Program-made: the position numbers and the translations under genes
Shown: piece after piece, positions 5,297-60,474 of the stretch
Numbering within the stretch: position 1 is the stretch's first letter
Layout: every line of letters starts with the position of its first letter
Notes under the pieces: model-generated
Seen by the model: only the letters and a program-made list of their open reading frames with translations
Told to the model about the DNA's origin: nothing
Database searches by the model: none
DNA from: an uncultured Clostridia bacterium
Lineage (GTDB): Bacteria > Bacillota > Clostridia > Christensenellales > DTU072
Direction: 5' to 3'
NCBI GenBank assembly: GCA_934274515.1
Contig: CAKQTC010000005.1
Coordinates: 77,193 to 141,192, forward strand
Length of the DNA stretch: 64,000 nt

Positions 5297-5325
5297 TTGA
5301 CACTTTTCTCGTGTAATATTATAAT
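5297..5325 (+). promoter_or_regulatory. consensus sigma-A type promoter for the 5384 gene
   Basis: TTGACA (5297-5302), a 17-nt spacer, then TATAAT (5320-5325). Confidence 0.6.
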
Positions 5326-5383
5326 AGTTAGTATAATAATAATATAAAATTATGCAAATTTCGGCATAAAAAGAAGGTTAATT

Positions 5384-6427
5384 ATGAAACAGACGGAAAT
5401 TACAAAAATTCAAAAATTGCTCGATAAAGACGGCAATATCGCGCAGGCGGGTTTTGCGAAAAAACTGCTTTGGGAATACAATCGCGGAAACATAACCGCG
5501 AGAAAATCGCTTATTAAGGAATGGGATTACTATTATATCGGCAACGAAAAATGCGCGATATGTCTTACCATTGCGGATATGGGCTATATCGGCGCGCTTA
5601 GCGCAACGGTTATGGACTTCGAAGGAATATGGCAGATTACCAAAAGTTCGGTTATTCTCTTCCCGATGGGCAAAATTAAACTTCCGCGCACTTCCGTCGC
5701 AGGCGACAGCAAATATAAAAACGGCGAAGTCGAAATGACGTTCCTTAACGACGGTACAAAACGCAGAATTTACGGCAAATATCCGAAATTCGGCAAAAAA
5801 GGCGAACCGCTCGTATTCGACGTTACCCTTACCGACGTCCCGGAAGAAAGTATGGTCATCGCCACCCCGTTCGCAAAAAACGGCAGGTTTTATTATAACC
5901 AAAAAATAAACTGTATGACTGCAAACGGTTCTTTCTCTCTCGGTGAAAAAGAATATGTTTTAAGCAAAGATAACGGCGCAATGGCGACGCTCGACTGGGG
6001 TCGCGGCGTATGGACGTACGACAACACTTGGTACTGGGGAAGTTTGCAAACCGCCCTCGAAGACGGCTCGACTTTCGGGTTTAACATCGGTTACGGATTC
6101 GGAAACAACACCGAAGCCACCGAAAATATGCTTTTCTACAACGGGAAAAGCCACAAACTCGACGAAGTGACGTTTAACATTCCGAAGAAACCCGACGGCA
6201 GCGACGACTTTATGTCGCCTTGGACTTTCACTTCCAACGACGGACGGTTCTTTATGGACTTCACTCCGATAATCGACCGTTACGCACCCGTGGATATTAA
6301 GATTTTCTGTATGATTCCGCACCAAGTATTCGGTAAATTTACGGGAAAAGCCGTTTTAGACGACGGAACCGTTATCGAAATCAAAGACAAACTCGGATTT
6401 GCGGAAAAAGTACATAATAAATGGTAA
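5384..6427 (+). CDS. conserved hypothetical protein, possibly DUF2804 family
   Basis: 347-aa ORF with AGAAGG upstream. Soluble, with no signal peptide. Motifs KEWDYYYI and LDWGRGVWTYDNTWYWGS match my recollection of DUF2804. The family call is tentative. Confidence 0.75.
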   Translation: MKQTEITKIQKLLDKDGNIAQAGFAKKLLWEYNRGNITARKSLIKEWDYYYIGNEKCAICLTIADMGYIGALSATVMDFEGIWQITKSSVILFPMGKIKLPRTSVAGDSKYKNGEVEMTFLNDGTKRRIYGKYPKFGKKGEPLVFDVTLTDVPEESMVIATPFAKNGRFYYNQKINCMTANGSFSLGEKEYVLSKDNGAMATLDWGRGVWTYDNTWYWGSLQTALEDGSTFGFNIGYGFGNNTEATENMLFYNGKSHKLDEVTFNIPKKPDGSDDFMSPWTFTSNDGRFFMDFTPIIDRYAPVDIKIFCMIPHQVFGKFTGKAVLDDGTVIEIKDKLGFAEKVHNKW

Positions 6428-47300: not shown

Positions 47301-50300
47301 ACGTGTTTACCGTTTTCACAGATATAATAGTGGTTTTCGTCCGTATGCTCGATAAGAATATAGTTGGTATCGGGCTCGCTGTCCACGTCTATCGGTATGG
47401 CGTAGTATTTTTTCGTTTTGTCTACGGTAAGGTCGTCTTTTTTAAGATAAACGAGTTTTCTTTCCGCGTATTTAATTAACGGTTCGTCTTTGTCGAACGC
47501 GAAGTTTACCTTGACGAACACCCTTTTGCGTTCTCCGTTGTCTAAAATTTCCACGCGGTGCAGATAATTCATCGCATTAAATTGTTTAATCGTAGTCGAA
47601 GCGTCCGCAATGGCTATTCCCTTGCTCGTTTTATACGCGCAGTAATCGCAACTCTCGCCGTAAACGCCCAGCGCGTTTTCATTTGCGTCGTCAACGAAAC
47701 ACGCGTTTCCGAGGCGGCTTAGGTTTTTCTTTTCGTAAGTGTGTTGTTCTTCCCAACCGCATACGCTGCAATAATGTCCGCTGCCGTCCGCCTTAGGAAT
47801 GAACGTGTGCAATCCCGTCGCCGGGGTGACGTTTTTCCTTTCGTGACGAATTTCAATCTTCGTGCCGTCTTCCAGCGTGCCGACGTACTCGTAAATACAT
47901 CTGTCGCCGCCTTCTTCTCCGCAAGTCGCCGAATGCGTCTTGTACGACGCGGCGGTGCAGTTGCTTACCACAAAACCGCTCGTTTTGCCGAAAATCTCGT
48001 ACTCGTATTTTACGGTTTTTATATCTTCCGACTTAACTTTGCCGGTATTTGTGCCGTTGTCGTACCCGATAAAACTGTTTCCTTCGAGTTCGTCCGCGCT
48101 ACCGACGAACATCCAACCGCGATTGTCGATAAACACGCCGCTTACGGCAAGGTTCGTTCCCATCTCAAAAGAAACTTTATGCACGGTAAGCGTTCCGAAA
48201 TAATGTTCCGCGCCGCCGCCGTTCATAAGATAAAACTCTTCCGCGTGTACGTCCGCACCGTTTTGAAGAACAATCCTGCCTTCTCTTACGTCGTCGCCGG
48301 TTATAACCAACTGCCCGTACTTGCTTGCTTCCGCGTTGTTTATCTTAACTTCGATTTTCGCGCGGACTTTTATCTTCCCGTATACGAACATAGCGTTGCT
48401 CTTTTTCGTAAAGAACTTCGTATCGCCGTTAATATCCGCGTCGTATCTCGTTGTTCCCTCTATGCTTATCTCGTTGCCTGCGCCCGACAACGTAAGCGTC
48501 TTAGGCTGTCTTTCGTCGCTAAGCGCAACCGAACCGTTTATCACGACTTTCTCGGTAAATTCCGTGTTTGCGCCTAACAAAAGTTTCTCGTTTATCGTAA
48601 ACTTTCCGCCAAGAGCGACGTCGTTACCGTACACGGAAACGATTCTCGTCGTAATCTCGGTCTCTTTCGGGTTCACCGTCGTCGCATTGCCGTTTTTCCT
48701 TATTTCCACGGTTGCGTCAGTAAGCGTCAACTCGCTTATATAAGCGTCTTCGTATAGAATAATCTTTCCTCCGAACACTTCTACCTTGCCCGACAACGAC
48801 GAATACTCTATATCGGCTTCGTCCTGATCGTAAACGTCGTTCCCTATCGATATCGTGCCGTAGTTTTCGATAACGCCTTTTTCCGACAACGCTAAACGTC
48901 TGAAAAAGTTCGCGCTTGCGCTCTCGTTGATCGTCATTCCCGAAGTAAGATCGATCGTACCGTAGTTTCCTTCGGCGGTCTTCGTCACACTAAACGCTCC
49001 GCCGACGATAAGTTCTTTTCCTTCTAAGGCGGATTTAGCCCCGATTATTCTTCCGCTTGCGGACACGTTTCCGCTTGCTGTCACCGCTCCTCCGACTATG
49101 CCGAGCGTTCCCGATACGTTTCCGTTACTCCACACCAAGTCTTGAGCAACCACCAGCGTTTTCTCTTTTTCGACGTCGCCGCCGTAAGTAAGTCCGCCGC
49201 CGATTACTCTTACGTAGTTCGAAAAATTCAGCGCTTCCGCTACGTCGGTATGCTCCGTTACGTAACGAACGGTACTTAACGTTCCCGTCGCGACTTCGAG
49301 GGAAAGAACCGAGCAGTTTTGGAAAATTCTCGTCCTGCTGCCGTTATACTCGTACACGCCGTCGCCCGCGCCGAACTCCGCCGCGTTTTTATAAAGTACA
49401 ATTTCGTCCCCGACAAGCGAATACTGTTCTGCGTCGTCGCTTGCTCCGCTCTTTACGTCAAACGTCTGTACGAGGGCGGCTTTTCTTCCGATAATCGTTG
49501 CCGTACTTAATTCGAGGGTTTTTCTCGCCGTTCCGTCGTTAAGCACTTCTTCTCTGTCGTACCCGACGTACAATATCGCGTCGCCGTTTTCGTTTTTCGC
49601 CGTAGCGGTCGCGGTCAATTCCGCGCTTACGTTGTTGCCTGCCTGCCCTTTGTCTTTTTCGACGATGACTATCGCGCCTTTATACAGCCCGTTGTTTTCC
49701 GCATTAACTCCCCTCTCGGCGGTCGCGGTTACCTCTCCTTTAAGCAGGTACTTCCCTGCTCCGACGAGTATCGCGCCTGCGTCCGTTCCCGCGATAACGC
49801 TGCCCGCTTCCGCGACCAACGCCGCGTCGGAATCGGACGGTTCTCCCGTTTCGCTTATGTATAGCGCGGTTTTACCCGTTATCGAACCCGTTCCTAAAAG
49901 TTTGACTTCCAACGCCCGCCCGACTATCTTGACGGCAGTTCCGCCAACGGATTCCACGACGCCGCCTATTTCCGCTTTCGCGCCGATTGCGCTGCTTTCC
50001 ATAAGCAATCCGTACGTCTTGCCTCTTACCGCGCCGTTTATCGTCGCTTTGTCGCACATAAGAGCAACGCCTTCTTCGCTTATTATCTCCGCGCCGCTCT
50101 CGACGGTAACGTGTAATTTGGCGTCTATCGCGTTGTTCTTCGCTTTAATCGTTCCGCTTTCCACGAAAAGATAGCCCGTATCCGCTTGCCCTCTTATTAT
50201 CGCTCCGCCGTTTTCGGTCGCCTTAAAGTCGGCGTTTTGTATCCTTAAATTGCCGAAAAGGGTCATTCCGCCGTTTTTAATCGATAAAGTATACCCGTTA

Positions 50301-53300
50301 AAATCGAGCGTCGTGTCCGCTTTGGGCGTTTGTACGTTGAACTCGTCGTACGTCGCGCTCCTTTCCAAAACAATCGTTCTCTTCTCGTTCGCCGAATCGT
50401 TAAACCCTTTTTCAAGCGACCCGAAATAACTCTTTACGTTGTTTCCGAGAGCGGACACCGCCGCCGATACCGTCCACTTAACGCCGCTTGCCGCGCCGCC
50501 GTACTCTTTCAATCTCAGCACCGCGTCGTCCTCTATCGCAAGGAACGAACCGCTTTCCGCCGTATACGTAGAAAGCGTCGCGGTAAAGTCTACCGCAAGC
50601 GTCGCGTCTTTTTTTACGCCTATCCCGTAACTCGAATCCTGCGTGTAGTCTTTGTTAATTCTCAATTCGCCCGTGACTACGGTATAAGTAAACCGCGATC
50701 CGTTGGAATACAACTCGGTCGTTCCGCTCGTTACTCTCAAACCGCTGTCGGTCGCGCTAAGGTCTACGCCGTCGTTGAAAAATTTCTTTCCGTCTACCGT
50801 AACCGCCGCGTTTTCCGTTACGCGAATTCTGCCTACGAGTCTACCTTTCGCGTTAAGCGTTTTTCCGCTCATCGTACAAGACGAGCCCGTTTCCGTAACC
50901 ACTTTGAACGTGTTTACCGACAATTCGTAACTGTCGCCGCTAAACGTTACTTTCGCTCCCTCGTTTATCGTAAACTCTTCGCCGTTTACGACAAGATTTT
51001 CCGTAAAGTCCATATCCGCCGCGATTACCCTGTGCGTGTATTCGGCGTACGCGTTTTTCTCGCCGAAATCGTCTTTGGTAAACGCAATCGCCCTGAATAC
51101 GACGTTTTCGTCTTTCTTCTCGACGTTCGAGCCGGTTTCGGGCGTAAACTTACCCTTTATCGTGGTTTCCGCGGCGATATTGAGTTTCGCTCCCGTCGCC
51201 ACGACGAGTTCGTCTTCCTTTTCCACTGTAACGGAGCCGTTCGTCTTCATCGCGCCGTTTATCGTCGCCTTTATCCCGGTTCCCGTCTTGACCGCGTTTA
51301 CCGCGCCGTCTTCGTTTTCCGCGACAAACCACACCCCGTTCATGCTTTTCCCGAACGCTCTTATCGTGTTTATCTTTCCTTTTATCGAACTAAACGCATA
51401 CGCATCGACGGAAATTTCGCTCACGTCCTCGTTTATGGCGACGCTGTTTATCGACGCTCCGCGGAACGCGTATTTACCTACCGAAAGAGATTGTCTTACG
51501 GGAATATTTACCGTGGTGACGCCCGTTTCCGCAAACGCGCTCGCTCCGATAACAAGCGGCTTGACCGCGTCCGCCGCGATTACAAACCTTGTAAGTCTTT
51601 CGGTTTTTGAAAACGCGTTTTCTTTTATTTTCGTTACGTTATTGCCGAATCTGACCGTCATTCCGCTTTCCGCGCCCGACCCGTAGAACGGGTTTGCCGT
51701 GCTGCTCATTTCATAATCGTCGCCGTTAATTTCAAAATCGATTTCACTAAGCGCGTTCATATGCGCAAACGCGTACGCACCGATACTCGCGACGTTGGAC
51801 GGAACGGCAATTTTCTTTACCGACCCGACGTTGTAAAACATTCTTGCAGGAACGCGTTTCACGTTCGCGCCTATCGTAATCGCGACGTCTCCGATACTTT
51901 GCATATTCATAAACGGCGAAGAATCGGTTGAACTTACGTCGCCGCCGTTTTCCACGTCGTACGTTATGTTTTTAATTCCGCGCGCGCCTTCGAACACGCT
52001 AACGCCTATATATGCTTTTTTACCGCCTAAATAAACGGTTTTTACGCCTACCGCGCCGTAAAACGCCTGTTTCCCCAACGTTACCGTGTTCGGAAGTTTT
52101 ATTTCGTCCGCAGGGGTTTCTTTATCGCGCTCGGTAATCGAAGTAAAGCGTCTTAACGCGCTTATTGCGCTCGTCGCGCTTCCGCCGCCTGCGGCGAACG
52201 CCCTTTCTTCTATTGCGGTTATACCGTTTTCTCCGCGATAATACACCGACTCCAAGTCCATGCAGTTTGAAAATGCGGCTACGCCTATCGACGTTATTTC
52301 TTCGGACAGTATGACGGTTTTTAATTTGCTGTTCGCGAATGAGGACGCGTCAACCGCTGTAAGTCCGCTTCCTTCGAAGTCGAACTCGGTAAAGTTTTTA
52401 CATCCTTCGAACGCGCTCGATTTTATGCTTTTCAGTCTGCCGTTCGGTTCGAGCGTTCTCATTCCCGAATATGCAAAAGCCCCTTCCCCTATCGTAACGG
52501 ATTTCTCTTTTCCTTGCTCGAAAACGACGGAAAAAAGGTATTTCGCGCTTTTTTCGTTCGACCCGCCGAACAATCCCTTGGGGACGACCGTAACCGCCGA
52601 CCCGATCGTAAGCGTAATTCCGCTCGTGTTCTCTCCGGCGTCGTCGAATACGTTTATTCCGATAGAATGATTTACCGTCTGTACGGAATTGTAGAAAATG
52701 TTCGTTAAGTTACTCGTTTTCTCGAACGCTTTCGCGCCTATGTTATTCACGTTTTTTCCGAGATAAACTTCGCTAATCGCGCTACACCCGGAATACGCTC
52801 TTCCGCCTATTTCGACAACCGCGTCGGTAATTCCCGTTTCGGCAAGGGATATGCACCCTTCGAACGCGCTTGCTCCTATGGTTTTTATCGTGTTCGGAAG
52901 AGTAACTTTCACCAGGCTTCTCATCCCCTTAAACGCTTCGTTCGCTATCGTAACGACTTCTTTTCCGTCCGAGCCTTTTTCGGGTACGGTTATCTCGTTG
53001 TAATGCATACGGAAATATTGAGAATAGTTAGGCGTGTCTTTTATCGTTCCGTTAAGTTTGCCTTCGCCCTCGTACGTTTTTACGAGCCTTATAAGATAGC
53101 ACGACAAATAAACGTGCGACGGGGCTTTGTTCGATTTTTTCTCGTGCGTGTATTTCCACGTGCCGTCCGGATTCGCCCCGTTCTCTTTGAACCCTTCTCC
53201 TTCGGCATCCGTCGAAAGAAGCGCGTTTTTATCGTACCAACCGCTAAACATAGCGCCTTCGTATTCGAGCCCTTCCGCGGCGGCGATTTGTTTCACTCTT

Positions 53301-56300
53301 TCCTCGGTTGCCAACGAAACGGTTTGTTTGAGTTTTACCGTGTAATACGCTCCGTCGTTGTCTTGACAAGTCGTAACGAAACGGTTGTTTAGCGATTTTA
53401 GCGAATCCGACGCCGTATAAACGGTATAATAAATTCGATAATCTATGTCTTCTTTTTCCGTTACTACTTCCACGGAATTCGTATATTGTTTCGTTCTTCC
53501 GCGCGCTTCGGGGCTTGTTTCCGTGCCGTAGGGATAAGAAAGCGTTTCTTCGTCAAACCCCGTCGGTATGGTTTCTTTCTCCGCCGTCGCGTCGGACGCG
53601 TCGGAAATAACGAAAGCGGTTACTTTCCTGCCCGACATCATCATATCTCGGCAGGAATATTTTATTTTTAACGCGCTGCCGTACTCGAAAGATATAGCCG
53701 TAGCGTACTCTTCGCTGCCGTCAACGGCTATTTGCGTTTCGTCTTTCGACGTCGCCGTAAACGTTTTTACGGAAAATCCCGCTTTTATTTTGCAGTCGTC
53801 GGTAAGGAACAGCGTAATCGTGTCGTCGTCGTTTACCCTGTATTTGAACGTGTATCTACCCGAATACGCGGTTGCCGATAAAATCTTGCCTACTTCCGCG
53901 CCCGTTACGGTAAACTCCGCGTAATCGTTGATGTTCGACCCGGCGGTTATGCGCCATCTCGTGAAGTCGTAACCCGTGGGGGAATGTCTTTTTATCGTGT
54001 ATTCCGAAAAATACAACCGTTTACTCACCGTGTACTCTCCGTCGTCGTAGTTCGTTTCCGAACCCCCTTCGACTATTTTTTTAACTTCCGCGGTGTTGAT
54101 TGCCGTCCCCGCGTTCCCGTCGAAACGGAAAGTGTCCTTTTCCAACGTTACGCTGTATTTTCTCAGGTTAAGCGTGCCGTACGCCCATAAATCGCCGTCG
54201 GGCATGGTTGCGCCTGAATACGGCTTGTCGTCAAACATTCTCGACCAGCCGCCGAAATCGTACCGTGCCTTAGTCGCGTTGATAAGCGCGTCCGCCACCG
54301 AATCGTTATAAACAAGACCCGTTATCGTAGCGTCGCGCAGATACTCGTCCTGCCCGACCAAAAGTTTGTTAAGTTTATAATATTTTTCTCCGTCTACGAG
54401 TTTGTACTCGTTTTTGTCGATTTCCGCACACGCGCTGAGCGGATTTTCCTCGTCGTTCTGCTCGTAGTCCGTTCTGACATAGTATGTAATCGTAAACTCG
54501 TTTTGTTTGGACGAAAACGAATAAACGACATTGTCCGCGTCGGATACGAGGGCAAACGTCGCTTCCCCTTTGTACCTGTCGTCAGAGTTTTCGACGTATG
54601 AATACCCTTCTTCCGCGTCAAGAGTTTTGCCGTTTGCCTGTACGCCGTCTATCGAGCGACCCCTTTCGAGCGACACCGAAAAGACGAACTTCGCTCCGTA
54701 AGGAACGATATAACTGTCTGCGCCGTATTTGTATTTTTCGGGCGAATTGCCGTTTATCGTCTTTATTTCGGGCTTTATTCCTTCTTTAAGGGAAATCGTG
54801 ACGTTATGGCTCTTTATCGTACAGACCGAACGTACTACGACGTCTTTTTTCGGCATACTGAACTCGCCGCTTACGTCCAACCCCTCGCCGTCGGCGACCC
54901 AGTCGCTTACCGTCCAGTGCTTCGCTTCGAATTTAAGCGCAAGGTCGTACGCCGCGTTCTCCCCGCCTTTAATCGTATATTTATCGTCAAGGGTAACCTT
55001 TTCGCCGTACTTTTTCGACACAACTCTTACCGCATAACCTTCTTTGTACGTACCGGGCATAAAAAACGTTTCGTCGTTCGTTACGTCCGTTCCGTCGTAA
55101 ATCATTTTGAAAATATAAGTTATGGTATATCTCCTGTTTTGGAAAACGCAGGTAAATTTTTCGTTGCCTTTAACCGTGTAAAAGAAAGAATACGTTATTC
55201 TTTCTCCTTTTACGGGTTCTTCTTTGCTCTCGATTCTGTCGCTCGCATCTTTTTCTTCCGTGTCTTTCCACTGCAAAAATTCGTACCCTTCAAACGCAAC
55301 GACGTAGAATTCGATAATGCTGCCGTAGGCATAGGAACCGCTCTTTACTCCGTTCGAACCGCCTATTCTCGCTTCGCCGTACTCGGACATAACGCCCGAT
55401 AAATCGACAAGGTATCTTCTCGCGGAAAACGAACCGGTAACTTGCACGTTTCTGTTCGGCATATTCGACGGCGTCTTTCCCTCTCCGACGCTTTGCCATT
55501 GTCCGAATTCGTAATGCTCCATCTCCGGCACTTTCGCAAGCATAATCCCGTCGTTGTAGTTATAATGCTCTTCTTTGACGAAAATTCCGTTTTCGCGCTT
55601 CTCGAACCCTGCGCCGATAATCGCTTTTTCCATATCTTCGTCAAGAAAATATTTGCCGTTTATGTTACAGTTAAGCGTATAGGTAAGTAAATAATCCTTG
55701 TCTTCGAACCTGCCGCGTATGAGCGTGTTCGACCCGCCCGCAATCTTTACGCCGAGTTTTTCGAGTTCGGCAAGCGTAAACGAACCGCTTTCGGGTATGC
55801 TCGTAGCCGATACGTCGGCAGCCGCAACGGTAACGACGGTTTTTTCTTTTTCGGAATAATAAACCGCTTTCTTTTCTCCGCCGTCTTCTTCGTAAACGAG
55901 ACAGAACGAGCCGTCGCCGGTACGCGCAAGCACCGCCGTTTTTCCTCCGTAAGCAATCGTCCAATCAAGAAAATTCTTACCCGTAGGCACCGCGCCGATT
56001 AACACGATGTCTTCGTTTTTTCCGTACGAACCGCTGCCTCCGCCGCTTACGACGGTAACTTTATACGCTTCGCGGTACTTCGCCGAAAACGTGTACGTCT
56101 TATTCGCTTTTACAAATTCCTGATTTAAGTCAAAATAGAAACTCGATACGGTCGCTATGCTCTGTTTTATCTCTTTTTCCGTCCCGTTTTCGATTTCCGT
56201 ATAAGATAATTCCCAGCCGAAACACGCCATATCCGTTATTTCGTCCGCTTTTATTTCCACCGAACCGTCTTCGACGTAGGCTTTGAATTTGCGCTGTTCT

Positions 56301-57097
56301 TCGCCGGTGCCGCCGTTTTTGATGACGACGTAAACGTACGGGTTCTCTTCGTAAACGGCGACGAAAAGCGTGCTTGTTCCGTCATACGGTTCGAGCGAAA
56401 CGCCGTTTTTGTCGGTAACCTTTTTGCCGTTTGCTTCCCAACAAACGAATTTATGCCTGTCTTTGACGGGAACGGGCAAAGAATAGTCGTATCCGCTAAG
56501 CAACGCGCCGTCGTACGACGCCGTCGAGCCGAACGCCGTTACCGTTACGTTCTGATTGTCCGCTTTCCCTCCGTTGTAAGACAAAGTAATCTTCTTATCG
56601 CTCGCGTAAACGGCACGCACCACCGCGTCTTCCGTTACGACGTATTCCGCGTTCCGCTCGTACGACAACGGTTTGTCGTTTGCCACCCAACAAACGAATT
56701 TCATATCCGCGACCAAATCGGCGGAAAGAGCGATTTTCGTCCCGTATGCGTACGCTCTCGACCGGTTATTCTCTCCGCTTATTATCTGCACGGTTCTCAC
56801 CGCGTCGGAAAACACCCCTCGAATAGTGACGTCGGTCGTAACTTTGTAGACCAAACTCTTTTCCGTCGAATAACGCTCCCCGTTTACTTCCCAGTACTCG
56901 AACTCCTGTCCTTGCGCAACGTTCGGGGTAAGGGTAATCGTCGCTCCGACGTCGTACTCCTTGGTTTCGGTAAACGAACCGTTGACAATCGTAACAGTCT
57001 TCTTCCCCGATAAATCCTGCTCGGAACAAGCCGTAATCCCGAAAGCGAAAATTATCGCCGCGATAATTACGAAAACGACCGTCAATTTGCGTTTCAT
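44393..57097 (-). CDS. giant surface lipoprotein 3 (4234 aa) with Listeria-Bacteroides repeats, BspA-type LRRs, beta-helix-like repeats and Cys/His-rich modules
   Basis: Start moved to ATG 57097 (GGAGG 7 nt upstream). MKRKLTVVFVIIAAIIFAFGITAC is a lipobox signal peptide. Flg_new-type repeats with F.GW/F..W motifs (nt ~53100-57000). LRR_5-type repeats such as TLPNTIKTIGASAFEGC and IKSSAFEGCKNF (nt ~51355-52990). G/T/A/V-rich beta repeats (nt ~48000-51350). CxxC/His modules (nt ~44800-47950). Confidence 0.9.
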   Translation of the reverse strand: MKRKLTVVFVIIAAIIFAFGITACSEQDLSGKKTVTIVNGSFTETKEYDVGATITLTPNVAQGQEFEYWEVNGERYSTEKSLVYKVTTDVTIRGVFSDAVRTVQIISGENNRSRAYAYGTKIALSADLVADMKFVCWVANDKPLSYERNAEYVVTEDAVVRAVYASDKKITLSYNGGKADNQNVTVTAFGSTASYDGALLSGYDYSLPVPVKDRHKFVCWEANGKKVTDKNGVSLEPYDGTSTLFVAVYEENPYVYVVIKNGGTGEEQRKFKAYVEDGSVEIKADEITDMACFGWELSYTEIENGTEKEIKQSIATVSSFYFDLNQEFVKANKTYTFSAKYREAYKVTVVSGGGSGSYGKNEDIVLIGAVPTGKNFLDWTIAYGGKTAVLARTGDGSFCLVYEEDGGEKKAVYYSEKEKTVVTVAAADVSATSIPESGSFTLAELEKLGVKIAGGSNTLIRGRFEDKDYLLTYTLNCNINGKYFLDEDMEKAIIGAGFEKRENGIFVKEEHYNYNDGIMLAKVPEMEHYEFGQWQSVGEGKTPSNMPNRNVQVTGSFSARRYLVDLSGVMSEYGEARIGGSNGVKSGSYAYGSIIEFYVVAFEGYEFLQWKDTEEKDASDRIESKEEPVKGERITYSFFYTVKGNEKFTCVFQNRRYTITYIFKMIYDGTDVTNDETFFMPGTYKEGYAVRVVSKKYGEKVTLDDKYTIKGGENAAYDLALKFEAKHWTVSDWVADGEGLDVSGEFSMPKKDVVVRSVCTIKSHNVTISLKEGIKPEIKTINGNSPEKYKYGADSYIVPYGAKFVFSVSLERGRSIDGVQANGKTLDAEEGYSYVENSDDRYKGEATFALVSDADNVVYSFSSKQNEFTITYYVRTDYEQNDEENPLSACAEIDKNEYKLVDGEKYYKLNKLLVGQDEYLRDATITGLVYNDSVADALINATKARYDFGGWSRMFDDKPYSGATMPDGDLWAYGTLNLRKYSVTLEKDTFRFDGNAGTAINTAEVKKIVEGGSETNYDDGEYTVSKRLYFSEYTIKRHSPTGYDFTRWRITAGSNINDYAEFTVTGAEVGKILSATAYSGRYTFKYRVNDDDTITLFLTDDCKIKAGFSVKTFTATSKDETQIAVDGSEEYATAISFEYGSALKIKYSCRDMMMSGRKVTAFVISDASDATAEKETIPTGFDEETLSYPYGTETSPEARGRTKQYTNSVEVVTEKEDIDYRIYYTVYTASDSLKSLNNRFVTTCQDNDGAYYTVKLKQTVSLATEERVKQIAAAEGLEYEGAMFSGWYDKNALLSTDAEGEGFKENGANPDGTWKYTHEKKSNKAPSHVYLSCYLIRLVKTYEGEGKLNGTIKDTPNYSQYFRMHYNEITVPEKGSDGKEVVTIANEAFKGMRSLVKVTLPNTIKTIGASAFEGCISLAETGITDAVVEIGGRAYSGCSAISEVYLGKNVNNIGAKAFEKTSNLTNIFYNSVQTVNHSIGINVFDDAGENTSGITLTIGSAVTVVPKGLFGGSNEKSAKYLFSVVFEQGKEKSVTIGEGAFAYSGMRTLEPNGRLKSIKSSAFEGCKNFTEFDFEGSGLTAVDASSFANSKLKTVILSEEITSIGVAAFSNCMDLESVYYRGENGITAIEERAFAAGGGSATSAISALRRFTSITERDKETPADEIKLPNTVTLGKQAFYGAVGVKTVYLGGKKAYIGVSVFEGARGIKNITYDVENGGDVSSTDSSPFMNMQSIGDVAITIGANVKRVPARMFYNVGSVKKIAVPSNVASIGAYAFAHMNALSEIDFEINGDDYEMSSTANPFYGSGAESGMTVRFGNNVTKIKENAFSKTERLTRFVIAADAVKPLVIGASAFAETGVTTVNIPVRQSLSVGKYAFRGASINSVAINEDVSEISVDAYAFSSIKGKINTIRAFGKSMNGVWFVAENEDGAVNAVKTGTGIKATINGAMKTNGSVTVEKEDELVVATGAKLNIAAETTIKGKFTPETGSNVEKKDENVVFRAIAFTKDDFGEKNAYAEYTHRVIAADMDFTENLVVNGEEFTINEGAKVTFSGDSYELSVNTFKVVTETGSSCTMSGKTLNAKGRLVGRIRVTENAAVTVDGKKFFNDGVDLSATDSGLRVTSGTTELYSNGSRFTYTVVTGELRINKDYTQDSSYGIGVKKDATLAVDFTATLSTYTAESGSFLAIEDDAVLRLKEYGGAASGVKWTVSAAVSALGNNVKSYFGSLEKGFNDSANEKRTIVLERSATYDEFNVQTPKADTTLDFNGYTLSIKNGGMTLFGNLRIQNADFKATENGGAIIRGQADTGYLFVESGTIKAKNNAIDAKLHVTVESGAEIISEEGVALMCDKATINGAVRGKTYGLLMESSAIGAKAEIGGVVESVGGTAVKIVGRALEVKLLGTGSITGKTALYISETGEPSDSDAALVAEAGSVIAGTDAGAILVGAGKYLLKGEVTATAERGVNAENNGLYKGAIVIVEKDKGQAGNNVSAELTATATAKNENGDAILYVGYDREEVLNDGTARKTLELSTATIIGRKAALVQTFDVKSGASDDAEQYSLVGDEIVLYKNAAEFGAGDGVYEYNGSRTRIFQNCSVLSLEVATGTLSTVRYVTEHTDVAEALNFSNYVRVIGGGLTYGGDVEKEKTLVVAQDLVWSNGNVSGTLGIVGGAVTASGNVSASGRIIGAKSALEGKELIVGGAFSVTKTAEGNYGTIDLTSGMTINESASANFFRRLALSEKGVIENYGTISIGNDVYDQDEADIEYSSLSGKVEVFGGKIILYEDAYISELTLTDATVEIRKNGNATTVNPKETEITTRIVSVYGNDVALGGKFTINEKLLLGANTEFTEKVVINGSVALSDERQPKTLTLSGAGNEISIEGTTRYDADINGDTKFFTKKSNAMFVYGKIKVRAKIEVKINNAEASKYGQLVITGDDVREGRIVLQNGADVHAEEFYLMNGGGAEHYFGTLTVHKVSFEMGTNLAVSGVFIDNRGWMFVGSADELEGNSFIGYDNGTNTGKVKSEDIKTVKYEYEIFGKTSGFVVSNCTAASYKTHSATCGEEGGDRCIYEYVGTLEDGTKIEIRHERKNVTPATGLHTFIPKADGSGHYCSVCGWEEQHTYEKKNLSRLGNACFVDDANENALGVYGESCDYCAYKTSKGIAIADASTTIKQFNAMNYLHRVEILDNGERKRVFVKVNFAFDKDEPLIKYAERKLVYLKKDDLTVDKTKKYYAIPIDVDSEPDTNYILIEHTDENHYYICENGKHVCIGCGEEAQGEQANHEYDSTKETFIDRFAGTDYYAIEYVCQNCGDSNGILNVGQHDGDTQIASMQNEINAQYNVTIDATSGTVGDNYLFMFVFGGIEYFGVAATRVGSEHKIIIGVKHNHNAYVYDGTSGKYVCATDGCKAAYSPEHACEERGTLNATSFGQDGLPGYTFGYVDSGDKVLTHACARCTREDAPSVEFTVVGDMRTAEDLNEALKGYAFFIDGKSYFARANVGDVTTPLTELRERTERVLNGDETLKVAYDLIYVVLVDAETGKTLSVSTTGSYTAKINHICNSYQPYNNGTSIIHRCSSCGKIADIGAHEADETKPYVVANYFGRTVLGRPCKHCDTVVPVTFDLGQQQIEYESYGTGEQTGYRAKNNLVTAMRANVSAINAVLEKMVGYDGTIISNATVTPRFANDIGRAWRDDAMFRAYNGMVTMDDDGMFYDLSEGYDGTLYNVFYVSFATTEGRSEIMAEIFVKHVCSEFISGTTEETATEHYCAVEQCRNRRCSKLYESELVGYNGENVYVKYDDCNPFGMIAGKFGNIENLTKHTTKTPSADTIGKIKTLSTQFATFMSHHTIPTDGTEYAGTVSLSTLNAFSNLYQKAIDVYKGAVATFDTEGGDYNKSVVVGANYPYAITRKADTVPETVDLQAAIANLYGFSDKEEFMNYAKDLVAEYNRHRANIAAGSATTNEALDNGCFYTDNGSFVFPIAVRNETGADVLTYLILSSDGLASVWINDVTVALKAINYSEEYHCSTNSVTNELLCKDTLFVWGEVRKFESEFELKHEPQTQVIGGRKENLYRYAFVKGVFGENYEEVDLTVVERSCLICGDGFENVATVTGKNATLETALNKYIETYATNSEVNSATGKKTYYLRLDGKEYRIGGIVKPWPLQDGEDELMSEEDMRFYRPTGKTTDDGTAEGAQWNNEAVPLVDAKYYAWEVKAFERNNESITKTFRILVLWTNPEK

Positions 57098-57170
57098 AGT
57101 AAAACCTCCGTGTCGGGGCGTTCCCCGCATACGCGCGCGTCTTGCGCTCGCGAAAATAGTCTAATTTAAT

Positions 57171-57310: not shown

Positions 57311-57368
57311 GTAGGCGTAGGTAAACGGTATTGCTTTATTATATCCGAAAAAATAAACTAAAAATTGT

Positions 57369-57400
57369 CCAACAATTCGACCTTTTACTATTGTTAATAT
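57369..57400 (+). promoter_or_regulatory. ECF-type promoter motif 2, copy A (CCAACAATTCG-N-TTGTTA)
   Basis: CCAAC at 57369-57373 and TTGTTA at 57391-57396, 17-nt spacing. The same 12-mer TCCAACAATTCG and the same spacing recur at 59286-59314. Confidence 0.5.
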
Positions 57401-57411
57401 TTTGATGAATC

Positions 57412-57939
57412 ATGATTCACGACAAACTTGAAAAAAAAGTCATAAAATTGAAAAACGGCGACACCTCTGCGTTCGACTATATTTACGAACGCACCAACCG
57501 TTCTGTCTATTTTACGATTTTTCGCATAGTTAAAGACAAGATGTCTGCCGAAGACGTGCTGCAAGACACCTATATGCGCGCGATTTCCGCCATTGAGCAA
57601 TATAGAGAAGGAACCAACTTTATCGGTTGGTTATGTTCTATCGGAAAATCTCTTGCCTTAAACCGCCTTAAAAAATACAGGCGCGAAATCTCTACCGATT
57701 TTGAAGCGCAAGCCTACAAATACGGTACAGAAGAACCCGAACTCCCTTATATTTTCGATATAGCGTCGAAAATTCTATCGGAGGACGAATACAAAATCGT
57801 TATGCTCTGTCACGTTTCGGGGTATAAACGTCGCGAAGTTTCGGATATGCTCGGTCTTCCCGTCGGAACGGTTACTTGGAAAAACAACGAAGCATTGAAA
57901 AAACTCAAATCCTATCTTGAAAAGGAGGACCGCTTATGA
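57412..57939 (+). CDS. ECF-type (group IV) sigma-70 family RNA polymerase sigma factor, module 2
   Basis: 175 aa. Region 2 (AEDVLQDTYMRAISAIEQY...FIGWLCSIGKSLALNRL) and region 4 (YKRREVSDMLGLPVGTVTWKNNEALKKLK). ATGA overlap with the next gene. Confidence 0.9.
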   Translation: MIHDKLEKKVIKLKNGDTSAFDYIYERTNRSVYFTIFRIVKDKMSAEDVLQDTYMRAISAIEQYREGTNFIGWLCSIGKSLALNRLKKYRREISTDFEAQAYKYGTEEPELPYIFDIASKILSEDEYKIVMLCHVSGYKRREVSDMLGLPVGTVTWKNNEALKKLKSYLEKEDRL

Positions 57940-59156
57940 AAAACGTAAAAAAACTCTTGGCGCGATACAAGTCGGAAATTTTACCCGACGAAAAAATAAA
58001 AGATAACATAAAACGCGAACTCGGTTTTGACGACAAGGAACGTTCCCTTGTTTATGCAAACGGCGGAGAACGGGTAGCGGACTCGCACCGCCGCAATAAA
58101 ATCATTACGGTTTGCGCCTCCGCTCTGATCGTTATACTGGTTCTCGGAATACTTATTCCCGTTTTGCTAAACAAACATCGAGATACGGAGTTTCCCTCTA
58201 TCGTAAATAAGTTTACTCAAATAACTGACGCCGATTCTTTCTACGCCTACGGCGCGGTTTCCGTCGGAACCATACTCTCTTCTTCGGTTTCGCAATCCGT
58301 TTCTCCGTCCGCACGGTCGGTTTGCAAAATCGTAAGTGCGTCCGTTCCCGAAAAAACAAACTCGGCAAAACTTTCCGCCGCCGCCGACAACGACCCCGAA
58401 CAACTGGCAAACGTCAATCGCTATATGCCCTTGGTCGAAAGTTTGTTGAGCGAAAAGAAAATCGAGGCGTCCTCTATCTCCGGCGAATACGGGTATAACT
58501 ACGGTATGACGGCAACCTACACGGATTTACGCGGAATTTCCGTATCTTACCGATTATTCTACGACAAGTTCCCGGTCAAAACGGATTCGGATGACGATAA
58601 ATCGAAAAAAAACTATTCTATATCGGGTATTCTCCTAATCGGAACCGCCGAATATCCGGCGGAAGGATTATACAAAACGGAAACGGATGACGACGAAACG
58701 GAAAGCGACCTTTACTTTAAGGCTTTTACGAATGCCGACAAAACTTCTTATATCGAAGCGCGCCATAAATACGAAACCGAAAAAGAAAAGGACAAAACCG
58801 AAATCGAACAGGAATTCGTTTACTCCGTCTACAAAAACAATAAATTAATCGAACGAACGGTAGTCGAATACGAATCGGAAAAAGACGAACTCGAATTAAA
58901 AATGTCTATTTCGAAAGACGGAAAAACGGATACCCTTAAATTCAAAGGAAAAATTGAAAACGGCAAAAATATCCTTATTGCCGAAGGCATTATAAACGGT
59001 CAATCTCTACGTTTTCGCGTCCTTATGCAACAGGACGGCTATCGTTACGTCTTCGACGACGGCTCGTTCTCGGATTTAGATCGCGACGACATCGACGACG
59101 ATGACGACGATAGTTCCGACGATGACGGCTCCGACGACGATGACGACGACGATTGA
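57936..59156 (+). CDS. single-pass membrane protein, candidate anti-sigma factor of module 2, with a poly-Asp C-terminus
   Basis: 406 aa, translationally coupled to the sigma gene. About 55 aa cytoplasmic N-terminus, one TM (IITVCASALIVILVLGILIPVLL), an outside domain, and a tail DRDDIDDDDDDSSDDDGSDDDDDDD. No zinc anti-sigma motif. The role is inferred. Confidence 0.65.
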   Translation: MKNVKKLLARYKSEILPDEKIKDNIKRELGFDDKERSLVYANGGERVADSHRRNKIITVCASALIVILVLGILIPVLLNKHRDTEFPSIVNKFTQITDADSFYAYGAVSVGTILSSSVSQSVSPSARSVCKIVSASVPEKTNSAKLSAAADNDPEQLANVNRYMPLVESLLSEKKIEASSISGEYGYNYGMTATYTDLRGISVSYRLFYDKFPVKTDSDDDKSKKNYSISGILLIGTAEYPAEGLYKTETDDDETESDLYFKAFTNADKTSYIEARHKYETEKEKDKTEIEQEFVYSVYKNNKLIERTVVEYESEKDELELKMSISKDGKTDTLKFKGKIENGKNILIAEGIINGQSLRFRVLMQQDGYRYVFDDGSFSDLDRDDIDDDDDDSSDDDGSDDDDDDD

Positions 59157-59175
59157 CAAACCGTATTTTAATCAT

Positions 59176-59202
59176 AAAAACCGCCGAAAAACGGCGGTTT
59201 TT
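59176..59202 (+). terminator. intrinsic terminator after the sigma-2 operon
   Basis: AAAAACCGCCG-AAAAA-CGGCGGTTTTT, with further Ts downstream. Confidence 0.7.
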
Positions 59203-59286
59203 CTCGCTTTTTTATGAACGCTACTCTCTGCGTTCCGTCCGTTTTTTCTTCTCGGATAAACTTTTTGGAATTTTTTTATTTTTTTT

Positions 59287-59318
59287 CCAACAATTCGGCG
59301 TTGCCGCTTTGTTATATA
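59287..59318 (+). promoter_or_regulatory. ECF-type promoter motif 2, copy B
   Basis: CCAAC at 59287-59291 and TTGTTA at 59309-59314, 17-nt spacing. About 60 nt upstream of the lipoprotein ATG 59377. Confidence 0.5.
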
Positions 59319-59376
59319 GATGAATGCGGAAAAATTCCGGAGTTTCCGTCTTAAAAAACAAAAAGGAGTTTTCGTT

Positions 59377-60408
59377 ATGAAAAAATTATTTATGATTATA
59401 TCACTATCGTTGGTGCTTGTGCTCGCATTCGGGCTTGTCGCTTGCAAAGTCACTCTTCCCGACGGTCCCGACGACAAAAACGACAAAGGAAAATTTACAA
59501 ATCTGACAACCGCCGAATCCGTATTCGGGTTCAGCGCCGCTTCGGCAGGAATGATTGTTTCTTCTATGTCCGACGGAGCCGCCGTCAATCTTTCTTCGGA
59601 AAATCTCTCGACGACGAGCAATCCGTCGGCAACGACTCTTTCCGTCGCGATATCCGACAACGCTTCGCTCGGAAAAACATCCGACGTATCCGATGTTCCC
59701 GACGCCGAAAAAACTCCCGATTTCGACGGTATCGAAACGACGGAACTCGATAGATACATGGCTTTGGTGGAAAGTTTGCTGAGCGACGGCGGCTTCAACA
59801 TCGATTCTCAGCCTTCGGAAAGAGAAGGTTTTTCCGAAAAAACGGTCGTTTCTTACAAAGATATGAAAGGTAATTCTTTACAATACGTAATGTACTACAA
59901 TCAAATTCTTAAAGGAACCGAAACGGATGACGACGGCGAAATCGAAGAAAATTATTCCATCGAGGGCGTTATGGTCATCGACGGAAAAGATTATGAAATT
60001 CGCGGAGAAAAAACCAACGAAACCGAACTTGACGAAAGCGAAACCGAAACCGAATTCGTGGTTAAACTCAGCGATACGCGCTATATCCGCGTCGAACAAA
60101 GCGTCGAAACGGAAAACGGCGAATCCGAGCAAGAATACAGTTATTCCGTATATGACAACGGTCGCCTTATCGAGCGCAGTACGTTCTCTTACGAAACCGA
60201 GCAGAACGAAACCGAATTAAAAATGACTTCTTTCAAAGACGGAAAAACACAAGTTTTCTATTTTGAAAAAGAACTCAAAAAAGGCGAGGAAGTCATTGAA
60301 ATACATATCGGCAACGGAAAAAGCGGCAAAGGGTACATAGTGCGCATAGAAACCGACGAAAACGGCAACAATCGCTACGTATACGAACCTACGAAATTCG
60401 ACGACTGA
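59377..60408 (+). CDS. lipoprotein, collinear paralog of the ectodomain of the 57936-59156 protein
   Basis: Start moved to ATG 59377 (AAAGGAG upstream). MKKLFMIISLSLVLVLAFGLVAC is a lipobox signal peptide. Matching blocks, this protein first: ESVFGFSAASAGMIVSS/DSFYAYGAVSVGTILSS, DRYMALVESLLS/NRYMPLVESLLS, ENYSIEGVMVIDG/KNYSISGILLIGT, EQEYSYSVYDNGRLIERSTFSYETEQNETELKMTSFKDGKT/EQEFVYSVYKNNKLIERTVVEYESEKDELELKMSISKDGKT. Confidence 0.85.
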   Translation: MKKLFMIISLSLVLVLAFGLVACKVTLPDGPDDKNDKGKFTNLTTAESVFGFSAASAGMIVSSMSDGAAVNLSSENLSTTSNPSATTLSVAISDNASLGKTSDVSDVPDAEKTPDFDGIETTELDRYMALVESLLSDGGFNIDSQPSEREGFSEKTVVSYKDMKGNSLQYVMYYNQILKGTETDDDGEIEENYSIEGVMVIDGKDYEIRGEKTNETELDESETETEFVVKLSDTRYIRVEQSVETENGESEQEYSYSVYDNGRLIERSTFSYETEQNETELKMTSFKDGKTQVFYFEKELKKGEEVIEIHIGNGKSGKGYIVRIETDENGNNRYVYEPTKFDD

Positions 60409-60443: not shown

Positions 60444-60474
60444 CGCTCCGTAAAATCATTGCGGAGCGTTTTTT
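60444..60474 (+). terminator. intrinsic terminator after the module 2 lipoprotein gene
   Basis: CGCTCCG-11 nt-CGGAGCG followed by T6. Confidence 0.7.

Follow-up and report, generated by a model that had tools for sequence, protein, structure and literature searches.

ECF sigma/anti-sigma pairs form the third major bacterial transmembrane signalling route and, to our knowledge, most of them have been assigned no signal and no logic. A gene trio termed Module 2 was analysed here together with a second trio (Module 1) located in the same window, i.e. the whole stretch of DNA under analysis, with a length of 64,000 nucleotides. In the SigI/RsgI system of Clostridium thermocellum, the anti-sigma factor is a single-pass protein whose extracellular modules (CBM3, GH10 and others) represent families of the sigma-induced products, and activation occurs by regulated intramembrane proteolysis (PMC10328401). 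Module 2 resembled SigI/RsgI, and also RsgI of B. subtilis, in having a Firmicute sigma factor putatively held by a single-pass anti-sigma factor with an extracellular module resembling the induced products, while Module 1 carries the RsgI_M/SEAL domain itself. However, the Module 2 sigma factor is a canonical ECF and not of the SigI type, its putatively induced paralog is a dedicated lipoprotein copying the whole ectodomain and not an enzyme with a single binding module in common with the sensor, and the domain shared by the two proteins falls in no described family. A Pfam search with the Module 2 proteins and 65 diverse family members gave no match to RsgI_N or RsgI_M, and judged by its sequence Module 2 is not RsgI-type, which is defined by RsgI_N and an RsgI_M/SEAL domain with an Asn-Pro site.

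In RpoE-RseA-RseB of E. coli and in AlgU-MucA-MucB, a co-encoded extracytoplasmic protein controls cleavage of the anti-sigma ectodomain through binding to it. RseB belongs to the MucB_RseB family and is neither a paralog of the RseA periplasmic domain nor a lipoprotein. Module 2 is likewise a three-part ECF module, and these systems are the model for a sensor-lipoprotein complex that is weighed below. Unlike RseB, the Module 2 lipoprotein is a paralog of the sensor ectodomain. The Pfam search gave no MucB_RseB match for the Module 2 proteins and 65 family members, a Foldseek search against PDB gave no LolA- or RseB-like neighbour for either predicted structure, and Module 2 is not of the MucB/RseB type, for which the LolA-like MucB_RseB fold is diagnostic.

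CpxP in the CpxP-CpxA system and the CseA lipoprotein with SigE/CseBC in Streptomyces are envelope proteins of the regulon which inhibit the sensor and are titrated by the stress signal. The Module 2 lipoprotein would similarly be a regulon envelope protein with a proposed negative feedback, whereas the CpxP-CpxA and CseA systems are two-component systems with a feedback protein unrelated in sequence to the sensor domain. In SigV-RsiV, likewise a Firmicute system, an external cationic protein (lysozyme) is the direct ligand of the ECF anti-sigma ectodomain, and its binding licenses site-1 cleavage; this served as the model for ligand-triggered proteolysis in Module 2. However, the RsiV domains DUF4163 and DUF3298 were not matched in Pfam by the Module 2 proteins or the 65 family members, so that by sequence the ectodomain is not RsiV-type, and the products of the SigV regulon, unlike the lipoprotein of Module 2, are enzymes and not RsiV paralogs. 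Sensor ectodomains paralogous to a protein handling the same ligand are known from BlaR1/MecR1 (BlaR1 and the PBP/OXA enzymes), and the eukaryotic decoys IL-1R2 and BAMBI are pathway-induced, signalling-dead receptor paralogs that compete for ligand; both groups differ from Module 2 in signalling machinery and involve different kingdoms. A literature search found no description of an anti-sigma factor with a paralogous lipoprotein and no bacterial sigma/anti-sigma example of either arrangement, in line with the original prediction, whose author knew of no description of the design. Module 2 is a new variation on ECF sigma/anti-sigma signalling.

Gene trio and promoter motifs

The three ORFs on which the original prediction was built were all found on the forward strand (57412-57939, 57936-59156 and 59377-60408), together with the ATGA overlap between sigma stop and membrane-protein start (57936-57939) and the putative terminator ahead of the third gene. 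The first gene encodes a product of 175 aa with matches to Sigma70_r2 in Pfam (E=2.8e-13), to Sigma70_r4_2 slightly under the cut-off (23 bits) and to TIGR02937 (sigma70-ECF) in NCBIfam with 69.4 bits (cut-off 42.9). ECF (group 4 sigma-70) factors are defined by having sigma-2 and sigma-4 regions only and ~170-200 aa, and by sequence the product is one of them. The second gene encodes a membrane protein of 406 aa. Its N-terminal part (aa 1-54) is basic and cytoplasmic, and a single transmembrane helix (aa ~55-78; 47-78 in the AlphaFold2 model) leads to the ectodomain (aa ~92-373), with poly-Asp at aa 381-406 as the tail. Overlap by 4 nt between an ECF sigma gene and the gene of a single-pass membrane protein with its N-terminus inside is the standard sigma/anti-sigma signature; the overlap was kept in 41 of 46 related loci. 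From gene coupling and topology, we infer an anti-sigma role for the membrane protein, which, cytoplasmic domain included, had no match in Pfam or NCBIfam and none to a known anti-sigma domain family.

An intrinsic-terminator-like hairpin with an 11-bp stem (59176-59202; six G-C pairs) followed by the T run CTCGCTTTTT separates the membrane-protein gene from the lipoprotein gene, the whole element spanning 59176-59212 on the forward strand. The lipoprotein gene is preceded by an AAGGAG ribosome-binding site and followed by another terminator-like hairpin (60444-60468, forward strand). Its product of 343 aa starts with MKKLFMIISLSLVLVLAFGLVAC and has a signal peptide ending in the lipobox LVAC with Cys23 (MKK...LAFGLVAC), in agreement with the consensus [LVI][ASTVI][GAS]C; a lipobox was present in 120/120 lipoprotein orthologs among the matches listed. 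The mature lipoprotein has a pI of 4.26 and a net charge of -37.

A 29-nt motif, CCAACAATTCG-N11-TTGTTA, was matched at just two sites in the window (chance expectation 0.09), one preceding the sigma gene and the other the lipoprotein gene. The first copy (TCCAACAATTCG-N11-TTGTTA; 57368-57396, forward strand) ends 16 nt before the sigma ATG, at which distance its core CCAAC-N19-GTT is placed; the second (59286-59314, forward strand) lies 63 nt upstream of the lipoprotein ATG. Among related loci, scanned over ~10 kb around each locus and by exact-pattern matches, the bipartite motif CCAACAA-N14-16-YGTT preceded 45/47 sigma genes, most often at 17 nt from the ATG, and 43/47 lipoprotein genes, where its consensus was TTTCCAACAAAACG-N10-YTGTTATATAGGT. 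The 972 kb of sequence (both strands) contained 113 matches, 88 of them at these sites, and the motif was retained on the lipoprotein gene even where this was unlinked from the sigma operon (L012 and L039). An exact-pattern scan of metagenome contigs gave 61 matches, of which 16 were in the family and all before a sigma or lipoprotein gene (13 of them the latter), 44 were unrelated chance matches, many within ORFs, and one (L082) was at a contig end. AAC-N18/19-GTT fits the ECF promoter pattern. The motif, with an AAC-containing -35 and a GT-containing -10, is by sequence a putative autoregulated promoter that would be read by the sigma factor of the trio. The lipoprotein gene is thus positioned behind the sigma operon's motif or, in some relatives, inside the operon, an arrangement that agrees with the proposed sensor/lipoprotein twin module at the level of the promoter. 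Co-regulation with the sigma operon is indicated, and the lipoprotein gene is most likely the direct and main sigma target; apart from the sigma factor's own operon, it is the only target that could be identified by the ~10 kb scans and exact-pattern matches, and further regulon members with weaker promoters may exist. The divergent giant gene at 44393-57130 was considered as a target and rejected, as it has no motif on its strand and is not found beside the trio elsewhere.

Module 1 has a corresponding layout on the forward strand, with an ECF sigma gene (1709-2218), an RsgI-like anti-sigma gene (2215-3576) and a lipoprotein gene (3650-5182; lipobox FAGC). Its motif, GCAACAAAACG-N11-CGTTTAATAAGCG, differs from that of Module 2 and had exactly two matches in the window with no mismatches (0.00 expected by chance), one upstream of the sigma gene with its ATG at 1709 (1652-1686) and one in the gap that separates the anti-sigma stop codon from the lipoprotein start (3586-3620). 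RsgI_M was matched in Pfam in both proteins with E-values of 3.1e-9 and 6.5e-19, at aa 79-175 of the anti-sigma factor and aa 36-141 of the lipoprotein, with Asn-Pro at aa 84-85 and 43-44, respectively, so that by sequence Module 1 has the RsgI_M part of an RsgI-type system in both proteins. The original prediction had assigned one design to both modules. This was upheld, with an unrelated domain in Module 1 and with duplication of the promoter motif as an additional shared feature. The paralogy detected between sensor and lipoprotein of Module 1 is not end-to-end and covers the ~107-residue RsgI_M/SEAL domain only (BLASTP E=9e-5). The link between the modules is stronger than had been foreseen because each lipoprotein gene carries the motif of its own sigma gene.

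A very improbable alternative is that these parts were misassigned, the motif being the operator of another regulator or the membrane protein not being an anti-sigma factor, and the trio only a co-regulated surface-protein cluster. The half-sites AACAA and TTGTT are mutual reverse complements, therefore the operator of a dimeric regulator is possible in principle, and the lack of a known anti-sigma domain in the cytoplasmic part would also agree with it. However, the polarity of the motif is fixed relative to the sigma and lipoprotein genes, its spacing from the sigma ATG is constant in most genomes and its AAC/GTT elements follow the ECF pattern. The distinct motif of Module 1 is duplicated likewise, which would follow if every sigma factor recognised a promoter of its own, and the gene overlap also speaks against misassignment.

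Paralogy and fold of the ectodomain and the lipoprotein

The original prediction had proposed that the lipoprotein is an end-to-end collinear paralog of the outer part of the membrane protein, and named an alignment, a comparison of predicted structures and a genome search as checks. BLASTP with composition-adjusted statistics aligned the two proteins with E=7e-43 and 112/350 identities (32%) from just past the membrane anchor to the C-terminus, with all the peptide pairs quoted in support of the proposal inside the alignment; the paralogous ectodomain (aa 92-373) is encoded at 58209-59054 on the forward strand. The Smith-Waterman score was 383, compared to 50.6 +/- 8.2 for shuffled sequences (z=40); when shuffling was confined to blocks of 20 residues, the score was 64.7 +/- 13.0 (z=24.6). 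Just 31/103 identities involved D, E or T, with many supplied by Y, G, S, I, L and F. A low-complexity artefact as the source of the alignment was ruled out by these results, and the proposed paralogy holds.

AlphaFold2 models of both proteins had an identical order of elements: a helix (aa 99-117 in the anti-sigma factor, 46-64 in the lipoprotein), a disordered loop (118-154 and 66-119), a second helix (154-171 and 119-135) and 14 antiparallel strands (177-373 and 141-338). The shared ectodomain is highly acidic and is predicted to consist of a 14-strand beta meander preceded by two helices with a disordered loop between them. Pfam searches with the window proteins and the 65 diverse family members gave no consistent ectodomain match, NCBIfam gave none, and the best hit in a PDB sequence profile search was 3o6u (E=0.05). 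Foldseek searches of both models against PDB returned nothing at E<=0.001 and TM-scores of <=0.37. The best E-values (0.14 and 0.063) were to unrelated barrels, and the weak top matches were assorted up-and-down barrels (porin-like proteins, VtrC, AimA and nitrobindin). The shared domain thus represents an unannotated extracytoplasmic domain family, and no binding function can be transferred to it because the fold lacks a significant structural neighbour.

Across 40 genomes, 47 alignment columns, including Glu ladders on the strands, were conserved at >=80% in both paralog classes, and the median identities of the classes (0.455 and 0.463) showed equal evolutionary rates. Both paralogs are therefore indicated, at the level of sequence, to retain the same biochemical activity. 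Class-specific conserved positions clustered in the membrane-proximal helix and the last strands. The outer part of the sensor is an ancient duplicate of the surface lipoprotein whose gene the sigma factor appears to switch on.

Proposed working of Module 2

The main reading, to which a probability of roughly 45% is given, is that Module 2 is an ECF sigma/transmembrane anti-sigma module in which the sensor ectodomain is a tethered proxy of the lipoprotein, shares its outside event and makes lipoprotein supply follow demand. At rest, the short cytoplasmic N-terminus of the membrane protein would hold the sigma factor. The ectodomain would stand outside the membrane, level with the lipid-anchored lipoprotein and folded like it, and could act as its proxy for that reason, so any outside event acting on the lipoprotein would also hit the copy in the sensor. 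As candidate events, a ligand may be bound, probably a cationic one in view of the net charges (-30 to -37), or the exposed disordered loop may be damaged or cleaved; the conserved loop at aa 118-154 of the modelled anti-sigma factor may be a cleavage region. No protease genes were linked to the trio. The event would lead to regulated proteolysis of the anti-sigma factor, and the freed sigma factor would transcribe its own operon as well as the lipoprotein gene, the latter from the other promoter copy. Supply of the lipoprotein would thus follow demand, and new lipoprotein would absorb the ligand or insult, shield the sensor and close a negative feedback loop. The scheme builds on the observed paralogy, conserved linkage and shared motif, on the common topology and fold model, and on the repeated pairing of the two domains; its conjectural steps are the anti-sigma function, the dependence of the motif on sigma, activation by proteolysis, the kind of signal and the feedback.

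A decoy or co-receptor action of the lipoprotein would be plausible. The results fit decoy and feedback models and, equally, a situation in which both proteins bind or suffer the same external agent. Comparative sequence gave an unusually complete circuit diagram, made up of a sensor and a switch, a pair of promoters and a single output twinned with the sensor. Should the twin act as a decoy or as a feedback partner, the design would offer a simple, portable means of matching the expression of a surface protein to demand, and would supply a rule for guessing the signal, i.e. the inducer is whatever binds the lipoprotein.

Pairing in two subfamilies

Gut Christensenellales are linked to host health and almost uncultured. 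The genome search for the three-part unit bore out its expected recurrence, with the trio linked in 41/47 species-level (GTDB) Christensenellales genomes among unrelated flanking genes and in three arrangements (collinear, divergent, or a single lipoprotein-sigma-anti-sigma operon). The two paralog classes paired separately in two subfamilies, with identity up to 62%. In subfamily 1, which includes the window, the classes were reciprocally monophyletic and ~32% identical with no conversion, and sensor-lipoprotein identity was 0.321 within genomes versus 0.315 across genomes; ongoing gene conversion was ruled out there by these values and the clean clades. Subfamily 2 pairs were 40-62% identical (57-62% in L115 and L118), and the motif was followed by an operon that began with the lipoprotein gene, arranged for co-transcription with the sigma and anti-sigma genes. 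The sigma factors of the subfamilies were 42-45% identical and the promoter motif was common to both, yet in the tree the anti-sigma factors and lipoproteins of one subfamily clustered together. It follows that the sensor-lipoprotein match was established or re-established at least twice, and the sequences point to two domains kept or re-made alike repeatedly.

This recurrence bears on a distinctly unlikely alternative, in which the lipoprotein is only a co-regulated stress product of the sigma factor, and the two ectodomains resemble each other because the sensor arose by fusing an anti-sigma anchor to a lipoprotein copy, with no present functional coupling. The old duplication in subfamily 1, with its clean, diverged classes, would agree with this, and the class-specific positions indicate some functional divergence. 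However, two subfamilies with a common sigma factor and promoter type acquired or regained the pairing independently, and such recurrence argues for selection on the sensor-lipoprotein match itself. The same 47 conserved columns, the equal rates in both classes and the occurrence of the same design with an unrelated domain in Module 1 also count against it.

Somewhat unlikely, by our estimate, is a direct heteromer, with the lipoprotein bound as pseudo-homodimer partner to the anti-sigma ectodomain and being either a feedback inhibitor or an obligatory co-receptor. As an inhibitor, by analogy with RseB for RseA and CpxP for CpxA, it would guard the ectodomain from site-1 cleavage. The signal would titrate the lipoprotein off the sensor or alter the complex. 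Both proteins share a fold and are anchored at an equivalent residue, making lateral pairing in the membrane geometrically easy; they are always co-regulated, and in subfamily 2 are encoded in one operon, as complex subunits often are. Paralogs as close as those of L115 and L118 are expected to cross-associate if their ancestor was homomeric, and the class-specific positions may form a specialised interface. Shared regulation within an operon and the 62% identity reached in subfamily 2 would be no less expected under this alternative. However, the shared conserved surface consists mostly of Glu ladders, unusual for a protein-protein interface, and the nearly equal same-genome and cross-genome identities give no sign of lineage-specific matching in subfamily 1.

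A broader reading is put forward tentatively and is itself rather doubtful: a general 'sensor-twin' design of bacteria in which an ECF anti-sigma factor would carry a tethered copy of the sigma-induced lipoprotein, matched by repeated duplication or conversion, and the lipoprotein would be the induced decoy or partner of its own sensor. It would have at least two independent origins with unrelated folds, namely SEAL (Module 1) and the new acidic beta-meander domain (Module 2), and would constitute a self-titrating homeostat comparable to the induced decoy receptors of animals. Module 1 indicates that SEAL-domain anti-sigma factors can have lipoprotein twins. The Module 2 domain family comprised >1000 clusters at 50% identity in gut Christensenellales, and a lipobox was present in 81/148 distant representatives.

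Module 2 proteins and their shared domain

The module 2 trio (an ECF sigma gene, a putative anti-sigma gene and a lipoprotein gene) is genuine and conserved. It represents a variant of ECF signalling that has so far not been described, and it is based on a domain family that lacks annotation. The three ORFs were found at the coordinates originally predicted, all on the + strand: the sigma gene (57412-57939), the membrane-protein gene encoding the putative anti-sigma factor (57936-59156), which overlaps the sigma gene by an ATGA visible in the sequence, and the lipoprotein gene (59377-60408). In place of the terminator expected between the membrane-protein and lipoprotein genes, a terminator-like hairpin with an 11-bp stem and a T run was identified (59176-59202), and another such hairpin followed the lipoprotein gene (60444-60468). 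The window sigma protein matched Sigma70_r2 (E = 2.8e-13) and scored 69.4 bits against the ECF superfamily model TIGR02937 (cut-off 42.9); none of the equivalog models scored at or above its cut-off. The membrane protein consists of a basic N-terminus of 54 residues (pI 9.6), one hydrophobic helix, an outside part of ~300 residues and a poly-Asp tail. The lipoprotein gene is preceded by an AAGGAG ribosome-binding site and its product starts with a classical signal peptide with LVAC as the last residues. The tail of the window anti-sigma factor (59076-59153) has 26 residues, nearly all Asp. Of 40 anti-sigma orthologs, 21 (about half) share an acidic C-terminal tail, which the lipoproteins lack.

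On sequence comparison, the paralogy of the sensor ectodomain and the lipoprotein is real. BLASTP with composition-adjusted statistics aligned both proteins collinearly from the anchor-proximal start to the C-terminus (E = 7e-43, 32% identity over 350 columns), which agrees with the end-to-end paralogy of the original prediction. The Smith-Waterman score was 40 standard deviations over global shuffles and 24.6 over shuffles that kept local composition, and D, E and T made up 31 of the 103 identities. Low-complexity matching as the sole source of the alignment was ruled out by the shuffles, the D/E/T share and the composition-adjusted BLASTP. The structural comparison that had been proposed showed the same order of elements in both AlphaFold2 models: the helix nearest the membrane is followed by a disordered loop (40-55 residues), another helix and 14 consecutive antiparallel strands, with pLDDT ~90 across the strand region.

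No Pfam or NCBIfam model fitted the shared domain in the window proteins or in 65 diverse members, a sequence search of the PDB produced no relative, and Foldseek against the PDB gave no match at E ≤ 0.001 with either model; its weak top matches were assorted up-and-down barrels. The domain is strongly acidic, with a pI of 4.26 and a net charge of -37 for the mature window lipoprotein and a median net charge of -38 in the family. The inter-helix loop is rich in A/S/T/P and variable in length. Over the family, its length and composition differ widely while the helices on either side are strongly conserved, and in one anti-sigma ortholog (locus L002, 6001-7377) the disordered loop carries LPTVRKLS(D/A)S three times in tandem.

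Distribution and evolution of the trio

The 90%-clustered collection contained 473 relatives of the membrane protein and 638 of the lipoprotein. Among the relatives listed, a lipobox was found in 120/120 lipoproteins and 0/120 membrane proteins, and 119/120 of the latter started with MKNVKK. When 1.84 billion representatives were searched with a profile, 1071 clusters passed E ≤ 0.001, of which 166 also passed E ≤ 1e-30, and the best 148 representatives included 81 of lipoprotein type and 54 of anti-sigma type. The linkage survey, with one genome per GTDB species, yielded 47 loci, all from Clostridia MAGs of human, chicken or mouse gut; named carriers (order Christensenellales) were Candidatus Borkfalkia, Scatosoma, Protoclostridium, Ornithoclostridium, Coproplasma and Christensenellaceae. 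In 41 of these loci the genes for sigma, anti-sigma factor and lipoprotein were linked, 10 being collinear like the window and 31 having the lipoprotein gene divergent from the sigma operon. The remaining six comprised two contigs ending right after the anti-sigma gene, two loci of one MAG with the trio split over different contigs (L012 and L048) and two lipoprotein genes alone (L035 and L039). The genes flanking the trio were wholly different from species to species, and the arrangement first noticed in the window was thus recovered in related genomes. The sigma and anti-sigma genes overlapped by 4 nt in 41/46 loci.

Comparison of 40 complete trios of subfamily 1, to which the window belongs, showed that the anti-sigma and lipoprotein classes are reciprocally monophyletic clades. 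Sensor/lipoprotein pairs from the same genome were not more alike than cross-genome pairs (identity 0.321 and 0.315), and both classes evolved at an equal rate (median identity 0.455 and 0.463, vs 0.651 for sigma). A total of 47 columns were ≥80% conserved with the identical residue in both classes, including Tyr, Gly and alternating Glu on the strands, while 9 were conserved but switched and 24 were class-specific, the class-specific ones being concentrated in the helix next to the membrane and in the final strands.

Both classes were also present in the more distant subfamily 2, with different helix motifs and a different type of cytoplasmic N-terminus. Here the operon order was motif-lipoprotein-sigma-anti-sigma (L115, 416-3048; L118, 3463-6116; L119, 3320-6182) and the ectodomain pairs of the three loci were 62%, 57% and 40% identical. 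The L115 pair contains a stretch of ~30 codons with 87-91% nucleotide identity, including a 33-nt identical run, which may be a gene-conversion tract. In the tree, anti-sigma clustered with lipoprotein inside each subfamily; median identity between the two classes was 0.386 in subfamily 2 and 0.328 in subfamily 1, compared with 0.289 for anti-sigma and 0.265 for lipoprotein between the subfamilies. This separate pairing indicates that matching of sensor and lipoprotein arose or was re-established on at least two occasions. That the resemblance of the two proteins is historical only was considered improbable. The subfamily 2 sigma factors were 42-45% identical to the window sigma and the promoter motif was unchanged, so the module as a whole is old.

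Promoter motif and proposed mechanism

The 29-nt motif TCCAACAATTCG-N11-TTGTTA had exactly two matches in the 64 kb, with 0.09 expected by chance: one before the sigma operon (57368-57396, 16 nt before the sigma ATG) and one before the lipoprotein gene, beyond the terminator (59286-59314, 63 nt before the ATG). Its core, AAC-N19-GTT, conforms to the ECF promoter pattern. The motif is read as the predicted promoter of the sigma factor itself, by which the sigma operon would be autoregulated and the lipoprotein gene would be a direct target. If both copies are promoters, transcription starts are expected 6-10 nt downstream of TTGTTATAT.

In 45/47 sigma genes the bipartite motif was present no more than 200 nt upstream, in most cases at exactly 17 nt from the ATG, and 43/47 lipoprotein genes had it in the same interval; of 113 matches in all (972 kb of both-strand sequence), 88 were at these sites. 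Unlinked lipoprotein genes (L012, L039) retained it. Scanning metagenome contigs for the exact pattern returned 61 matches (16 family, 44 unrelated chance and one other, L082); of the family matches, 13 precede a lipoprotein gene and the other 3 a sigma gene. Misassignment of the motif or of the anti-sigma role was rated very improbable.

The distance from the motif end to the sigma ATG is 17 nt in most of L001-L049 and 16 nt in the window (57368-57411), so that the sigma-operon mRNA leader must be a few nucleotides long; no obvious Shine-Dalgarno sequence was found in the window leader. The half-sites AACAA and TTGTT are mutual reverse complements at 57368-57396, 59286-59314 and in related loci, so the motif is pseudo-palindromic and also matches the opposite strand in several loci. 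The L082 copy (2773-2800), on a contig that stops short of the downstream gene, has an extended lipoprotein-type -10 element (TTGTTATATAAG), lies directly 3' of an ABC-transporter ATPase gene and adjoins a group II intron reverse transcriptase gene; it may mark a trio that is truncated or a further gene of the regulon.

At the level of sequence, co-regulation and repeated matching are what the data show; a shared ligand and direct contact fit them equally well. Direct contact would make the lipoprotein an RseB/CpxP-like inhibitor or co-receptor in a heteromer with the sensor, which we hold to be a credible if somewhat unlikely arrangement. The best reading, with a probability of about 0.45, is proxy sensing with demand-driven lipoprotein supply. 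Under proxy sensing, the sensor ectodomain would be a tethered copy of the lipoprotein exposed to the same external event, either binding of a ligand (perhaps cationic) or damage in the exposed loop. The event would lead to proteolysis of the anti-sigma factor, the freed sigma would produce more lipoprotein and more sigma, and the newly made lipoprotein would take up the signal.

The closest known counterpart of this design is the SigI/RsgI system of C. thermocellum, in which the sensor's outer module and modules found in the induced enzymes share their families (PMC10328401). Module 2 was negative in the RsgI membership tests. RseB, CpxP, RsiV and BlaR1 each have one aspect of the design in common with module 2. 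The original prediction knew of no description of the three-part design, and the literature search likewise found none of an anti-sigma factor with its whole ectodomain duplicated as a sigma-dependent lipoprotein.

Module 1 and neighbouring genes

Module 1, the first such unit in the window (sigma-1, an RsgI-like anti-sigma factor and a lipoprotein), has the same gene logic, as had been claimed, with an unrelated fold, and its own motif is duplicated before the lipoprotein gene, which extends the likeness to regulation. This motif, GCAACAAAACG-N11-CGTTTAATAAGCG, is distinct from that of module 2 and occurred exactly twice, before sigma-1 (1652-1686) and, in the 73 nt that separate the lipoprotein gene from the anti-sigma gene, at 3586-3620. 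RsgI_M domains, known as bacterial SEAL domains (PMC10556640), were identified in the products of the anti-sigma gene (2215-3576, E = 3.1e-9) and the lipoprotein gene (3650-5182, E = 6.5e-19), and direct BLAST similarity of the two was confined to ~107 residues (E = 9e-5). In both proteins an Asn-Pro pair lies where the domain begins (anti-sigma aa 84-85, EINPEA; lipoprotein aa 43-44, DVNPSI), the position of the self-cleavage site of RsgI (PMC10328401). A SEAL-domain protein that is lipid-anchored and controlled by an ECF sigma factor is not mentioned in the SEAL domain paper (PMC10556640).

Downstream of module 1, the stretch 5297-6427 comprises a DUF2804 gene (E = 1.6e-133) preceded by a perfect sigma-70 consensus promoter, TTGACA-17-TATAAT (5297-5325). 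Finally, three giant minus-strand ORFs (7735-24879, 5714 aa; 24948-37853, 4301 aa; 44393-57130, 4245 aa) jointly occupy ~42.8 kb of the 64-kb window. They start with lipoprotein-type signal peptides (MIAC, FTGC and ITAC), show no linkage to the trio in other species, and the 4245-aa protein contains LRR_5 repeats.
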